Source of the DNA: a virus
Length of the DNA stretch: 64,000 bases
Strand: one strand, 5' to 3'
IMG/VR virus record: IMGVR_UViG_3300042545_001484
Location: 1 to 64,000 of that record
A program made the position numbers and the translations under genes. The notes beneath the pieces were generated by a model. That model saw nothing but the letters and a program-made list of their open reading frames with translations, made no database searches and was not told the origin of the DNA. This document shows, one piece after another, positions 9,795 to 12,966 of the stretch; within the stretch, counting starts at the first letter, position 1, and every line of letters starts with the position of its first letter.

Positions 9795-9912
9795 GATGAC
9801 CACACTGGAAGTTCCTGTGGCGACCAAGCGCTCGGGGGAAGATAGGAACGTAAAGAGCGAAATTACTGCCAGTGTGCGTGGCAACATCTCAGTAGCCAGT
9901 GTGGTCATTTAA
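9795..9912 (+). ncRNA. candidate small structured RNA 1 in the tRNA cluster
   Basis: A 13-bp perfect long-range stem (ATGACCACACTGG...CCAGTGTGGTCAT) encloses about 90 nt with internal hairpins. No ORF. Lies between a promoter and tRNA-Thr. Reminiscent of the T4 stable RNAs C and D. Confidence 0.3.
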
Positions 9913-9922
9913 GAAGTTTACT

Positions 9923-9998
9923 GCCCTTATAGCTCAGTTGGTAGAGCACCTGCCTTGTAAGCAGGGGGTCTGGGGTTCGAGTCCTCATGAGGGCACCA
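9923..9998 (+). tRNA. tRNA-Thr (TGT)
   Basis: Acceptor gccctta/tgagggc; loop cuUGUaa; CCA encoded. Confidence 0.85.
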
Positions 9999-10147
9999 TT
10001 ATTCTAGGATATGAATATGAGAAGCGAATCTGCAGAATGTGTGATGTATGTGCCCGATACACCTTTGAATCGTGCGGCATTTACAGATGAAACGGTTTTA
10101 GCAGAGATATATAAAGTTTCGAATATTAAAATTGTGTTTAAAGAATT

Positions 10148-10223
10148 GGGGGATTAGCTCAGCTGGGAGAGCGTCTGCCTTGCACGCAGAAGGTCAACGG
10201 TTCGATCCCGTTATCCTCCACCA
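10148..10223 (+). tRNA. tRNA-Ala (TGC)
   Basis: G3-U70 identity pair; very close to E. coli tRNA-Ala (GCTCAGCTGGGAGAGC...TTGCACGCAG...). CCA encoded. Confidence 0.9.
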
Positions 10224-10227
10224 TTAT

Positions 10228-10360
10228 AGACCACCTCTGCTGAACCTCGTGGGAAACCACATAGAGAAAAGGGTAGCGCTTGCTGTTGCAACAGTAAAGA
10301 CTATCTAGGAAGATCAAGCGTCCGGAAGTAATTGATCAAGGCACACTGTGGGTGGTCGCT
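10228..10360 (+). ncRNA. candidate small structured RNA 2 in the tRNA cluster
   Basis: Terminal stem AGACCACC...GGTGGTCG with the same GACCAC motif as RNA 1; internal palindrome ctgttgcaacag. No ORF. Between tRNA-Ala and the radical SAM gene. Confidence 0.3.
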
Positions 10361-10377
10361 CATAAAAAGGAATTAAA

Positions 10378-11394
10378 ATGTTATCTTCTAGCGACAGTAA
10401 TATGACTTATGTGCAATCTAGACTCGCCAAGGCGAAGATCAAAATGCTTCAGCTTGATGTGTTTGGATTCTGTAATGCCAAATGTTGGTATTGCCCTGTA
10501 AGATATATTCCTCAGCCAGAAGAAGGCATGGTTCAAATGCCTTTGGAAACTGTCGAGAAAATCTTCAAGCAATTTGTAGAAGAACGAGACAAAGAAGAAG
10601 GTGTTGTTGATCGCAGCTTTAGTTTGTTTATGACAACTCATTATAGCGAGATTCTTTTGTATAAGGATTTTGCTGGGCTGTTGGAACTTGCCAGAAAATA
10701 TAAGCTGCAGACTTTTATTCTCAGTAATGGTATGAACCTGAACAAAGAAAAAGTCGATCTGATCAAAGAGTATAAAGATGTTGTTCCTCATATTGGGCTG
10801 AACATTCCTGCTTTTGAGAAGGAACTGTGGGCAAAGCGTGCTGGGTTTCCTGAAAGACGGTTCGACGAATTGATGGAGAATCTGGATTATGCAGGAGAAA
10901 CTCTGCATGGGCTTATAGAACTCAATATCCATGTCAACGGTGTTAACACTGAAGATTTCAATGGTCGAACAACCAAAGGTCCAAAGTTTGACGAACTTGA
11001 TATTAACTTAGACAGAGAACATGGCGAGTGGGAACGACAGTGGGTGATCGCTGATCGAAGGTTCCCCAAGTTTAATGTCGGCAAAGGTTCGTTGATGGAT
11101 CGCACTGGTTTGCTTTCTGATTATATTTCTAACAAAGAGATGCAGGAACGCAGACTCGAGACTCGCACCGTTGTCGGTTGTGGAAATTGGGGCGACAGAA
11201 CCACCGAATGGCTGCATATCAATGCAGCAGGTGACGTGATTCTTTGTTGTAACGATTATAATTTCGACTATAAGTTTGGAAACATTAACACCCAAACTAT
11301 TCGAGAAATTTGGGGCAGCGATGCCCATGCCGCTACAGTTGAACGAGCATATCGTGAGATATGTGCAAATTGTACGGCAGCAATAATTATCTAA
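10378..11394 (+). CDS. radical SAM enzyme with a C-terminal SPASM/twitch-like Cys-rich domain
   Basis: CxxxCxxC (CNAKCWYC) near the N-terminus. C-terminal cluster VVGCGNWGD...LCCND...ICANC. 338 aa. Confidence 0.7.
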   Translation: MLSSSDSNMTYVQSRLAKAKIKMLQLDVFGFCNAKCWYCPVRYIPQPEEGMVQMPLETVEKIFKQFVEERDKEEGVVDRSFSLFMTTHYSEILLYKDFAGLLELARKYKLQTFILSNGMNLNKEKVDLIKEYKDVVPHIGLNIPAFEKELWAKRAGFPERRFDELMENLDYAGETLHGLIELNIHVNGVNTEDFNGRTTKGPKFDELDINLDREHGEWERQWVIADRRFPKFNVGKGSLMDRTGLLSDYISNKEMQERRLETRTVVGCGNWGDRTTEWLHINAAGDVILCCNDYNFDYKFGNINTQTIREIWGSDAHAATVERAYREICANCTAAIII

Positions 11395-11486
11395 TTGACT
11401 CCGACCTCTGGTTTAAGTTCCGACCTGAACTGACAGGCGGTAACATTTGTGTCCTAGGAAACGCATTTGTTAAGGAGTTTTTATTT

Positions 11487-11562
11487 GCCTTTGTAGCTCA
11501 GTTGGTAGAGCAGTGGATTGAAGATCCACGTGTCGGGGGTTCGACTCCCTCCGAAGGCACCA
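11487..11562 (+). tRNA. tRNA-Phe (GAA)
   Basis: Acceptor gcctttg/cgaaggc; loop uuGAAga; CCA encoded. Confidence 0.85.
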
Positions 11563-11651
11563 GTTAATAGCTAAACTACTCGCATACCGTATGGTGTATG
11601 GAGTCTGTCGTGAATGTTTAGCACGTGTATCGAGACGTGAGATACTCCTAT

Positions 11652-11734
11652 GCGGGTATGGTGGAATTGGCAGACACACTAGTTTTAGGTACTAGCGCTT
11701 CGGCGTGGGGGTTCAAGTCCCTCTACCCGTACCA
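11652..11734 (+). tRNA. tRNA-Leu (TAG), type II
   Basis: Acceptor gcgggta/tacccgt; loop uuUAGgu; long variable arm; CCA encoded. Confidence 0.85.
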
Positions 11735-11740
11735 TTTTAA

Positions 11741-11825
11741 GGGTCGGTAAAGCCAGTGGCTCTGGCAGTCGGACTGTAAATCCGATCCGTCTTCGGGGGA
11801 GGATCGATACCTCACTGACCCACCA
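11741..11825 (+). tRNA. tRNA-Tyr (GTA), type II
   Basis: Acceptor gggtcgg/ctgaccc with a G-U pair; loop cuGUAaa; long variable arm; variant T-loop ATCGATA; CCA encoded. Confidence 0.75.
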
Positions 11826-11827
11826 TT

Positions 11828-11903
11828 GGGGGCGTAGCTCAATCGGGAGAGCACCAGCTTGTCACGCTGGAGGTAGTGGGATCGAAACCCATCGTCCTCG
11901 CCA
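11828..11903 (+). tRNA. tRNA-Asp (GTC)
   Basis: Acceptor gggggcg/cgtcctc with two G-U pairs; loop uuGUCac; CCA encoded. Confidence 0.8.
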
Positions 11904-11918
11904 CTAAATAAGTTTAAT

Positions 11919-11993
11919 GCGGATGTAACTCAGTGGTAGAGTGTCAGCCTTCCAAGCTGTTCGTCGTCGGTTCGATCCCGATCATCCGCTCCA
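11919..11993 (+). tRNA. tRNA-Gly (TCC)
   Basis: Acceptor gcggatg/catccgc; loop cuUCCaa; resembles E. coli tRNA-Gly2; CCA encoded. Confidence 0.85.
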
Positions 11994-11999
11994 CTTTTG

Positions 12000-12080
12000 C
12001 CCAAGTATCCCTCTCCGCTACGAACGGAGCCAAAGGTAACTGGAAGTAAGATGCAGGTTCGAATCCTGTCGAGGGCTCCA
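12000..12080 (+). pseudogene. degenerate tRNA-like element: intact T-arm, 3' acceptor strand and CCA, an Arg(ACG)-type anticodon hairpin, but no canonical 5' acceptor or D-arm
   Basis: GCAGGTTCGAATCCTGT, then CGAGGGC-T-CCA, but no complementary 5' strand. Hairpin ctccg-CUACGAA-cggag. Could not be folded into a cloverleaf. Confidence 0.3.
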
Positions 12081-12085
12081 TATAT

Positions 12086-12162
12086 CGGGGATTAGCGCAG
12101 TCTGGTAGCGCACCTGCTTTGGGAGCAGGGGGTCGTAGGTTCGAATCCTACATTCCCGACCA
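12086..12162 (+). tRNA. tRNA-Pro (TGG)
   Basis: Acceptor cggggat/attcccg; loop uuUGGga; CCA encoded. Confidence 0.85.
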
Positions 12163-12168
12163 GTTTTT

Positions 12169-12243
12169 GTCGGTGTGGTGAAATGGCTATCATTACGGTC
12201 TCCAAAACCGTCGTTCCGAGTTCGAGTCTCGGCACCTTCGCCA
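12169..12243 (+). tRNA. tRNA-Trp (CCA) with two mismatches in the acceptor stem
   Basis: D-arm, anticodon stem acggt/accgt with loop cuCCAaa, and T-arm are canonical. Acceptor gtcggtg/caccttc has C3-U70 and U2-U71 mismatches. Confidence 0.55.
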
Positions 12244-12258
12244 GTTTTTAGGTGATTT

Positions 12259-12696
12259 ATGTTTGATGAAGCAAAGAAGGCAATTATAGAATCAAGCGAC
12301 ACTTCTACAATTTATGTTGGTGCCGATAGCATTCGATATAAAAAGAACAAGGAGTGGTGGGCAAAGTATTCGACCGTGATCATCCTGCACAAGGATTCGA
12401 AGCATGGTTGTCAGCTTTGGCACAATTCGGTTGACATGCGCGACTACGGAAACCTTCGTCAAAGAATGATCACCGAAGCTGGATTTGCGATCCAAGCAGC
12501 AACAGAAATTATTGATGTTGTTGGCGATCGCAAACTAGAAATTCACCTTGACATCAATCCTGATCCTAAGCACAAATCTAGTATTGCGATAAAAGAAGCA
12601 TTGGGATATGTCAAAGGAACTACTGGTCTTGATGCAAAAGTTAAACCTGAGGCATTTGCTGCAACGCATGCAGCTGACCATATGGTAAGAAGTTAA
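12259..12696 (+). CDS. hypothetical protein inside the tRNA cluster (145 aa), possible RNase-H-like nuclease fold
   Basis: IYVGADS, VIILH and EIHLDINPDP segments loosely resemble the acidic catalytic segments of RNase-H-like nucleases. Ends 2 nt before tRNA-Val. Weak call. Confidence 0.5.
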   Translation: MFDEAKKAIIESSDTSTIYVGADSIRYKKNKEWWAKYSTVIILHKDSKHGCQLWHNSVDMRDYGNLRQRMITEAGFAIQAATEIIDVVGDRKLEIHLDINPDPKHKSSIAIKEALGYVKGTTGLDAKVKPEAFAATHAADHMVRS

Positions 12697-12697
12697 T

Positions 12698-12773
12698 GCG
12701 GGATTAGCTCAGTTGGTAGAGCGTCTGCTTTACACGCAGAATGTCGGCAGTTCGAGCCTGTCATCCCGTACCA
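12698..12773 (+). tRNA. tRNA-Val (TAC)
   Basis: Acceptor gcgggat/atcccgt (G1-U72); loop uuUACac; CCA encoded. Confidence 0.85.
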
Positions 12774-12966
12774 AATATCTGGACCGACGGGTCTAGTAAG
12801 AAGTGTGACTGAATAATCCCCTCGTCAGTGGGGATAAAGTAGACTCGGGGATTGGTCTCCTGCTTAACCAGCTAACGAGTCGTGGGTCGAGATTACAGAT
12901 AGTAATTGACTGGACCTTGGAGGTATACCTAAATCCTCCCACTTCGCTTTTATTATAAATAGATGC

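Follow-up and report, generated by a model that had tools for sequence, protein, structure and literature searches.

Whether a phage tRNA operon can also house independent genes for other structured RNAs is the question raised by the tRNA gene array of IMG/VR virus record IMGVR_UViG_3300042545_001484, of which positions 1 to 64,000 were analyzed (the window). A first-pass annotation of this DNA had proposed that three segments inside the array, referred to here as segment 1 (9795-9912), segment 2 (10228-10360), and segment 3 (12780-12960), are free of open reading frames (ORFs) and encode small structured non-coding RNAs, possibly counterparts of the two small stable RNAs of phage T4, rnaC and rnaD. 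We found that structured non-coding RNAs are indeed encoded among the tRNA genes at these positions; they are conserved in related viral contigs, lie on the tRNA strand, and show compensatory changes in their stems. Segment 3 is the already described manA RNA, whereas segments 1 and 2 fall outside Rfam 15 and, as judged by blastn, outside the cultured phages. With moderate confidence, we interpret the three segments as independent genes for structured, probably trans-acting RNAs that ride in phage tRNA operons.

Conservation of the Three Segments in Related Viral Contigs

The window represents an uncultivated T4-like phage and encodes gp32, T4 baseplate proteins, a SegE-like endonuclease, PhoH, and ribonucleotide reductase. 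No close relative of this phage was found among 50,697 deposited phage records. ARAGORN located 21 tRNAs on the plus strand of the window between positions 5590 and 12773, and the tRNAs in these arrays are typically separated by 1-10 nucleotides (nt), with no RNA element between them. Related IMG/VR contigs were retrieved using two ORFs internal to the array, which encode a radical-SAM and an RNaseH-like protein, together with conserved DNA words. Covariance models were built in the course of this work for segment 1 (R1) and segment 2 (R2), with E-values that are rough, and Rfam 15 was scanned, covering the region 9300-13100 at E ≤ 10 for these two segments.

Segments 1-3 are 80-90% identical in the related viral contigs, compared to 55-92% for the neighboring proteins. 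Since the segments are conserved to this degree and their stems covary, the decisive support for them is comparative. Folding of the single sequences gave a divided result: segment 1 (z = -3.24, 0 of 200 shuffles) and segment 3 (z = -2.64, 4 of 200) are more stable than shuffled sequences, but segment 2 is not distinct from its shuffled versions (z = -1.38, 25 of 200) and therefore would not stand out on one sequence alone.

Segments 1 and 2 are each found in dozens of viral contigs from IMG/VR, almost always adjoining tRNAs, and all matches to R1 and R2 are on the tRNA strand. The comparison of arrays showed that the order of the modules differs between relatives, as it does for the tRNA genes. 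The segments are RNA-level structures with a modular, tRNA-like placement, and they are under strong purifying and compensatory selection. A blastn search of the 50,697 cultured-phage records with segment 1, segment 2, the permuted form of segment 2 (see below), and manA returned nothing meaningful. A loosely patterned scan of bacterial genome contigs yielded no true homologues among the 120 loci listed, the pattern being too loose to inform.

Segment 1 Forms a Four-Way Junction

The segment 1 RNA (9795-9912, plus strand; R1 score of 124 bits in the window) is a four-way junction. Its terminal stem P1 pairs ATGACCACACTGG (9796-9808) with CCAGTGTGGTCAT (9896-9908) and encloses three arms, which are P2 (GUUCCUGU/AUAGGAAC, 9811-9818/9842-9849), P3 (GUAA/UUAC, 9850-9853/9863-9866) with the invariant loop AGAGCGAAA, and the 5-bp P4 (9867-9871/9879-9883) with the loop GUAGCG. 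The 12-nt joining strand that leads from P4 back to P1 (ACAUCUCAGUAG, 9884-9895) is conserved as ACACCUCAGUAG. The R1 model matched 42 + 10 IMG/VR loci (22 + 7 distinct sequences), with a single match per contig. In their alignment, 97% of cells are paired and 12 of the 30 pairs show compensatory change, which is the covariation across related phages that the first-pass annotation had suggested looking for; controls with slid pairing positions gave 33-45% paired. None of 500 shuffles reached the observed values, either here or for segment 2, counts that overstate the significance because the homologous sequences are related and not independent.

The changes are concentrated in P1, where nine of ten pairs are compensatory and the window sequence ACCACAC/GUGUGGU corresponds to AAUGUAA/UUACAUU in relatives, and they also affect three of the five pairs in P4. 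P2 is invariant in the first set of homologues and covaries in the further ones (U-A to C-G and C-G to U-A). An unrelated sequence replaces the inner part of P2 in contig L348, and this part of the arm is therefore dispensable. Segments 1 and 2 both contain conserved G-U pairs, which identify the plus strand as the RNA strand. No Rfam family was matched by segment 1.

The description of the segments as ORF-free does not hold strictly for segment 1, which contains 38-codon ORFs on both strands as a by-product of its long terminal stem. The possibility that such an ORF is coding was rejected because the relatives read ATG-TAA at that position, so that the non-coding character of the segment stands. 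Segment 1 is typically located 5 nt 3' of tRNA-Asn or tRNA-Met, and often manA or a tRNA follows 5 nt downstream. In the window, a sigma-70-like promoter (TTGACA-17-TATAGT, 9709-9737, plus strand) precedes segment 1 and tRNA-Thr. With 11 of 12 consensus matches, this near-consensus promoter makes the co-transcription of segment 1 with tRNA-Thr plausible. The promoter is not kept in relatives, where segment 1 is found directly 3' of a tRNA.

Segment 2 Forms a Three-Way Junction with Optional Arms

The segment 2 RNA (10229-10357, plus strand; R2 score of 116 bits in the window) has a three-way junction core. P1 is formed by GACCACCT (10229-10236) and GGGTGGTC (10350-10357), reads GACCACC/GGUGGUC in the window and GACUUCC/GGAAGUC or GGCUUCC/GGAAGCC in relatives, and adjoins a short invariant helix, UGCU/GGCA, that includes an invariant U-G pair. 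The joining strand GCUGAAC (10239-10245) leads into helix Pj (10245-10247/10307-10309), which is CCC/GGG, or CCU/AGG in the window, and encloses two optional arms, P2 (10249-10260) and P3 (10272-10305). The tip of P3 is UUGCAA (10286-10291), and the internal palindrome reported earlier for this segment was confirmed as CTGTTGCAACAG at 10283-10294. P4 (10312-10337) carries the tip UCCGGA (10321-10326) and is flanked by GGAAGA and by the conserved strand UCAAGGCACAC (10336-10346). The terminal stems of segments 1 and 2 were thus located where the first-pass annotation had placed them, as were the hairpins of segment 3. The GACCAC motif that it had seen as shared by the two terminal stems turned out to be specific to the window, as the relatives have AATGTAA/TTACATT and GACTTCC/GGAAGTC, respectively.

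Among the related loci, R2 gave 66 matches, corresponding to 42 distinct sequences. The mini forms in contigs L110 (1521-1608), L338, and L251 lack the arms P2 and P3. Altogether 93.6% of the alignment cells are paired, and compensatory changes were found in 21 of the 35 pairs; when the pairing positions were slid, the paired share for segments 1 and 2 together dropped to 30-50%. G-U pairs are present in 10 and 7 sequences at two P3 pairs and in 20 sequences at a basal P3 pair. Most of the 42 distinct copies begin 0 nt 3' of tRNA-Ala(UGC) and end 0-3 nt 5' of tRNA-Leu(UAG) or tRNA-Phe. In the window, a radical-SAM gene is found downstream of segment 2 instead of a tRNA, with 20 nt to the ORF start at 10378. 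This gene (10378-11394, plus strand) encodes a radical SAM/SPASM protein inside the tRNA array.

The Rfam scan did not assign segment 2 to any family. The stretch GUCCGGAAG...CAAGGCA resembles domain IV of 4.5S RNA, and segment 2 was considered as a signal recognition particle (SRP) RNA. Covariation shows that the tip is CCGG, CGCG, or UGCA closed by ACGU/ACGU and not a GGAA tetraloop, and there is no Rfam SRP match; the resemblance was rejected for these two reasons.

Circular Permutation and Self-Complementary Tips of Segment 2

On other tRNA-rich contigs, we found 11 distinct sequences that represent a natural circular permutation of segment 2, for example at 11251-11356 in contig L275. In these RNAs the blocks appear in the order GGAAGA, P4, UCAAGGCACAC, a loop-closed P1, and GCUGAAC. 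Each contig contains one copy flanked by tRNAs, so that a pair of tandem partial copies is not the explanation. The former Pj has become the terminal stem and covaries (AUCGG/CCGAU; AUCAGUGG/CCAUUGAU; UUCGaGUGG/CCACCGAA). With 11 sequences, the covariation support for the permuted stems is modest, whereas the reordering of the invariant blocks is unambiguous. Since the same core also occurs circularly permuted, it is the fold of segment 2, and not its ends, that is under selection. A search for the third permutation, with ends in P4, gave chance matches only, and two of the three possible permutations were thus found. Two tandem pattern matches in contig L280 were discarded, as they are inside a collagen-like coding repeat. 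In an Rfam scan of eight contigs with permuted segment 2, the best 150 of 168 matches were all tRNAs. On the minus strand of contig L259, a segment 1 homologue (4153-4266) and a permuted segment 2 (4336-4441) are present together, so that the co-occurrence of the two RNA families extends outside the clade of the window.

Of 32 distinct P4 arms, 27 carry a tip hexamer that is self-complementary, with nine different sequences (UCCGGA, UCGCGA, CCCGGG, CUGCAG, GCCGGC, UCUAGA, UGCGCA, AUGCAU, and GUGCAC). A self-complementary tetramer is kept in three more arms, and the remaining two are probably false pattern matches. The P4 tip often takes the form G-hexamer-A in an 8-nt loop. The P3 tips (UUGCAA, UACGUA, UUCGAA, and UCGCGA) are always unlike the P4 tip of the same molecule. 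A hairpin cannot use the central four bases of its tip in its own stem, so the symmetry of the tips needs another cause; by a rough estimate, chance would preserve it about once in 16 for each independent change. We infer that the tip palindromes reflect pairing between two copies of the segment 2 RNA.

Segment 3 Is the manA RNA

An Rfam scan identified segment 3 as the manA RNA motif (RF01745; 12780-12949, plus strand), with a score of 66.1 bits against a gathering score of 55.2 and an alignment to positions 1-192 of the 192-position model. The blocks GUGACUGAAUAA and GGUAUAC..AAUCC and the closing stem are present with high posterior probability, and one inner hairpin of the model (positions ~88-115) is deleted. 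The GC-rich hairpins noted earlier in this segment, gaccgacgggtc and cccctcgtcagtgggg, are present. The manA homologues in related contigs scored 59-68 bits. This RNA was described from marine metagenomes and T4-like cyanophages, was proposed as a candidate riboswitch (PMC2864571), and is labeled as cis-regulatory in Rfam.

In the clade studied here, manA is always found a few bases 3' of a tRNA or of segment 1. For 7 of the 27 distinct cases, the next element directly downstream is likewise an RNA gene, either a tRNA or segment 2. On the basis of both placements, we regard manA as a module of the array, for which the cis-regulatory label is not secure. Downstream of the other copies, unrelated ORFs of 53, 95, 196, 222, or 488 codons begin within 6-30 nt. 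In the window, the distance is 17 nt to the 95-codon ORF at 12967, for which no Pfam match was found.

Proposed Release and Action of the RNAs

The segments would, in the interpretation that we favor, be transcribed together with the adjacent tRNAs, in the case of segment 1 in the window from the promoter at 9709-9737. The enzymes that mature tRNAs would free them, with RNase P cutting where the downstream tRNA begins and 3'-end processing of the upstream tRNA releasing the other side. Each product would then be a compact RNA, held together by its terminal stem and acting in trans. Segment 2 would most likely self-associate via the hexamer at the P4 tip, and also via the P3 tip where it is present; RNAs with one arm would give dimers, and those with both arms would give chains or rings. 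A precedent for such self-association is offered by GOLLD and ROOL, which use kissing loops and share the same tRNA-island niche (PMC12286853). We suggest more tentatively that segment 2 may define a new class of small (~90-145 nt) phage RNAs with a permutation-tolerant three-way core that self-assemble by one or two tips.

Several points weigh against this interpretation. Transcription, processing sites, and stability are all deduced from the DNA, and the relatedness of the homologues inflates the shuffle statistics. When the inner stem below a tip is fully closed, the loop is 4-6 nt, which is tight for a kissing complex. As an alternative, the palindromes in the loops could serve for a function at the DNA level or for a dimeric protein. 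The novelty of segments 1 and 2 is qualified as well, since they may be among the unnamed entries of a set of 8,495 IMG/VR candidate RNAs (PMC10690425). Lastly, segment 2 and manA end 20 nt and 17 nt upstream of the ORFs at 10378 and 12967, respectively, which would permit a leader role, and the ORFs within 6-30 nt 3' of most manA copies fit the cis-regulatory label of Rfam.

The last two observations form the basis of the alternative that survives best, although we consider it unlikely, in which the segments are cis-acting, riboswitch-like leaders, with segment 2 serving the radical-SAM gene and manA the 95-codon ORF. The riboswitch originally proposed for manA also fits this explanation, as does the ORF that begins 6-30 nt 3' of about half of the manA copies in relatives. 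However, in nearly all relatives what follows segment 2 within 0-3 nt is a tRNA and not an ORF, segment 1 is followed by tRNAs or manA, and manA itself either precedes a tRNA or segment 2 or is followed by ORFs that differ from one copy to another. Furthermore, we saw neither a conserved terminator nor a sequestered ribosome-binding site. Overall, segments 1-3 are probably not mere leaders.

A three-way junction, conserved joining strands, and circular permutation are typical of hammerhead and twister ribozymes. Segment 2 combines these features and is embedded in a polycistronic RNA that needs to be cut, so it was considered as a small self-cleaving ribozyme of an undescribed class, which we judge to be quite improbable. 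No match at E ≤ 10 to the Rfam families of the hammerhead, twister, twister-sister, pistol, hatchet, or hepatitis delta virus (HDV) ribozymes was found in the region 9300-13100. The joining strands of segment 2 (GCUGAAC / AA / AAGGCACACUGCA) are, by inspection, unlike the core of the hammerhead (CUGANGA, GAAA). The flanking tRNAs already supply processing sites, and self-complementary tips are not a ribozyme feature.

We give little credence to the idea that the segments are spacers or processing scaffolds, which would help nucleases to separate the tRNAs and would be degraded afterwards. It would account for the tRNAs on both sides and for terminal stems that could present cleavage sites, but most tRNAs in the same arrays are 1-10 nt apart without any such element. 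The long invariant loops and joining strands (GAUAGGAACGUAAAGAGCGAAAUUAC, UCAAGGCACAC) are far more constrained than a spacer would need to be, and the permutation preserves a three-dimensional core and not the ends. There is a similarly slight chance that the segments are tRNA mimics or degenerate tRNAs acting as decoys for host nucleases that target tRNAs or for proteins that bind them. The topology of segment 1, with a terminal stem and three arms, resembles a cloverleaf, the same array contains a tRNA-Arg(ACG)-like RNA without a D arm (see below), and T4 rnaC is tRNA-like. However, ARAGORN in its default, mitochondrial, relaxed, and intron modes made no call in segments 1 and 2, and the Rfam tRNA model (RF00005) gave no match there at E ≤ 10. 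Both segments lack a T-loop, an anticodon-like 7-nt loop, and a CCA end, and in segment 1 the last arm is separated from the terminal stem by a strand of 12 nt.

It is highly improbable that the palindromes act in DNA as protein-binding, recombination, or endonuclease sites. In favor of this idea, the tips form perfect DNA palindromes of 6-12 bp, a SegE-like homing endonuclease is encoded in the window, and segB is located inside the T4 tRNA cluster. Against it, the stems contain many G-U pairs, which would be mismatched at the DNA level, the palindrome sequences change freely where a protein site would be conserved, and the elements are always on the tRNA strand. Taken together, the G-U pairs, the free change of the palindromes, the tRNA-flanked placement, and the permutation disfavor most of the alternatives to independent, trans-acting RNAs.

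Further RNA Modules and Other Genes of the Window

Three further modules were identified in the array. One structured module (9442-9530, plus strand) lies between tRNA-Ser and tRNA-His and has 13 distinct homologues; it is always located 6-7 nt 3' of a tRNA, and its inner hairpin covaries, with five compensatory pairs. A second (11565-11645, plus strand), between tRNA-Phe and tRNA-Leu, has 8 distinct homologues, 9 of 28 pairs with compensatory changes, and a tRNA 6 nt downstream in 7 of the 8 cases. Neither of these two modules has an Rfam match.

The third (11999-12080, plus strand) resembles tRNA-Arg(ACG) but has no D arm, and is represented by 17 distinct sequences with compensatory changes in 11 of 16 pairs. 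Its acceptor stem measures 7 bp, its anticodon loop reads CUACGAA, its T arm is canonical, and it ends in UCCA; the 23 nt that separate the anticodon arm from the T arm, AAGGUAACUGGAA, are conserved. The acceptor stem contains two mismatches in the window copy and is perfect and covarying in relatives. The RNA was missed by both ARAGORN and the Rfam tRNA model, and in relatives without it a canonical tRNA-Arg(ACG) is present. The D-armless RNA may be a decoy or a tRNA of unusual form. The first-pass annotation had missed these three modules, as well as the identity of manA, the permuted form of segment 2, and the self-complementary loops.

A tRNA-Tyr(GUA) gene with a clean cloverleaf and a long variable arm (11741-11825, plus strand) was likewise missed by default ARAGORN and the Rfam tRNA model, and was called by ARAGORN only at a relaxed threshold. 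In the gap between tRNA-Thr and tRNA-Ala there is a 48-codon ORF (10011-10157, plus strand) that is kept in five relatives. Because almost no compensatory pairing was seen, a small protein gene is a more likely reading of this stretch than an RNA. Candidate matches to YrlA, a Y RNA-like RNA, were rejected, as their scores of 21-27 bits lie below the gathering score of 69 and they overlap ordinary tRNAs; they are artefacts of the tRNA-like domain in the YrlA model. The arrays of two relatives contain GOLLD RNA (RF02032, 178-190 bits), at 2099-2561 in contig L022 and 2083-2546 in contig L023, between the homologues of segment 1 and segment 2. The window itself does not contain GOLLD.

The RNaseH-like protein (PF04308) is encoded inside the tRNA array at 12259-12696 on the plus strand, and its homologues, with 40-46% identity, are found in large Vibrio, Pseudomonas, and roseobacter phages. 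Cargo that is unusual for a T4-like phage is encoded at 16532-18613 (plus strand) and in other ORFs of the window, namely an adenylate/guanylate cyclase with a CHASE2 domain, together with homologues of CsgG and CsgF, which are curli secretion proteins. A two-piece, circularly permuted transfer-messenger RNA (tmRNA) with the tag peptide ANDNDVAFALAA was called by ARAGORN at 31898-32352 on the plus strand, and scored 91.6 bits with the Rfam model tmRNA_permuted and 54.2 bits with alpha_tmRNA. Its presence is a hint that the host, which may be an alphaproteobacterium, uses a tmRNA in two pieces.

Implications for RNAs Encoded in Phage tRNA Arrays

Phage tRNA arrays are emerging as a favored site of structured RNAs, including T4 rnaC and rnaD, GOLLD, ROOL, and, in this clade, manA. 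The window and its relatives add to this niche at least two RNA families without an Rfam match, as well as the further modules. A general route for such RNAs is suggested, in which abundant transcription and processing would be coupled to those of the tRNAs. The presence of manA between RNA genes questions its cis-regulatory annotation. Segment 2 offers a small fold backed by covariation, with a functional core defined by permutation and a loop symmetry that predicts self-association, and would be an easier experimental handle than assemblies of 600-800 nt.

Comparison with Known Systems

The T4 RNAs rnaC (139 nt) and rnaD (119 nt) are encoded 3' of tRNA-Arg in the T4 tRNA cluster, and in phage EcS1 rnaC is found between tRNA-Phe and tRNA-Trp. 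Like segments 1-3, they are non-tRNA genes in a phage tRNA cluster, on the tRNA strand, and flanked by tRNAs. They are stable RNAs, presumably released by tRNA processing. With respect to descent and structure, the proposed correspondence fails. R1 and R2 gave no match at E ≤ 1 in T4 positions 68000-75000, no Rfam family links them to the T4 RNAs, and rnaC is tRNA-like with a canonical T arm that is absent from segments 1-3. Homologues of rnaC are confined to the enterobacterial relatives of T4. The GUAGCG loop common to segment 1 P4 and a hairpin of T4 rnaC was dismissed as a chance similarity, as it is not kept in the rnaC of EcS1 and UFV01. Segments 1-3 are therefore analogues of the T4 RNAs in gene organization only, with no homology, and the closest analogue of rnaC in kind within the window is the tRNA-Arg(ACG)-like RNA at 11999-12080.

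In the case of manA, the host of segment 3 is a T4-like phage, in line with the cyanophage examples (PMC2864571). Its position in this clade as a module of the tRNA array, sometimes with RNA genes on both sides, is a poor fit with a purely 5'-untranslated-region role.

The conserved core of segment 2, with ends placed in different helices, has parallels in hammerhead ribozymes of types I-III, in twister ribozymes, and in two-piece tmRNA. According to Rfam, segment 2 has no family similarity to any of these, and two of its three possible permutations were found.

The dimerization initiation site of human immunodeficiency virus 1 (HIV-1) is a hairpin with a six-base self-complementary tip, the sequence of which varies while its self-complementarity is maintained. 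The tips of segment 2 are likewise six-base self-complementary sequences, often flanked by purines (G-UCUAGA-A, G-UGCGCA-A, and G-UCCGGA-A). The context is unrelated, and many copies of segment 2 can close to a loop of 4-6 nt.

GOLLD and ROOL are phage RNAs encoded near tRNA islands that form homo-oligomers via kissing loops (PMC12286853). Segment 2 is also phage-encoded and lies near tRNA islands, and its self-association would be a further likeness, one that we infer from the tips. In contrast to the ornate, multi-junction GOLLD and ROOL of 500-800 nt, segments 1 and 2 are ~115-130 nt long and have no sequence relationship to them. With 88-147 nt and one junction, segment 2 falls short of the size (>500 nt) and multi-junction architecture that mark GOLLD and ROOL. 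If its self-assembly proves true, segment 2 would be a miniature relative in principle of GOLLD and ROOL in the same tRNA-array niche, and would provide a tractable model for why phages make self-assembling RNAs beside their tRNAs.

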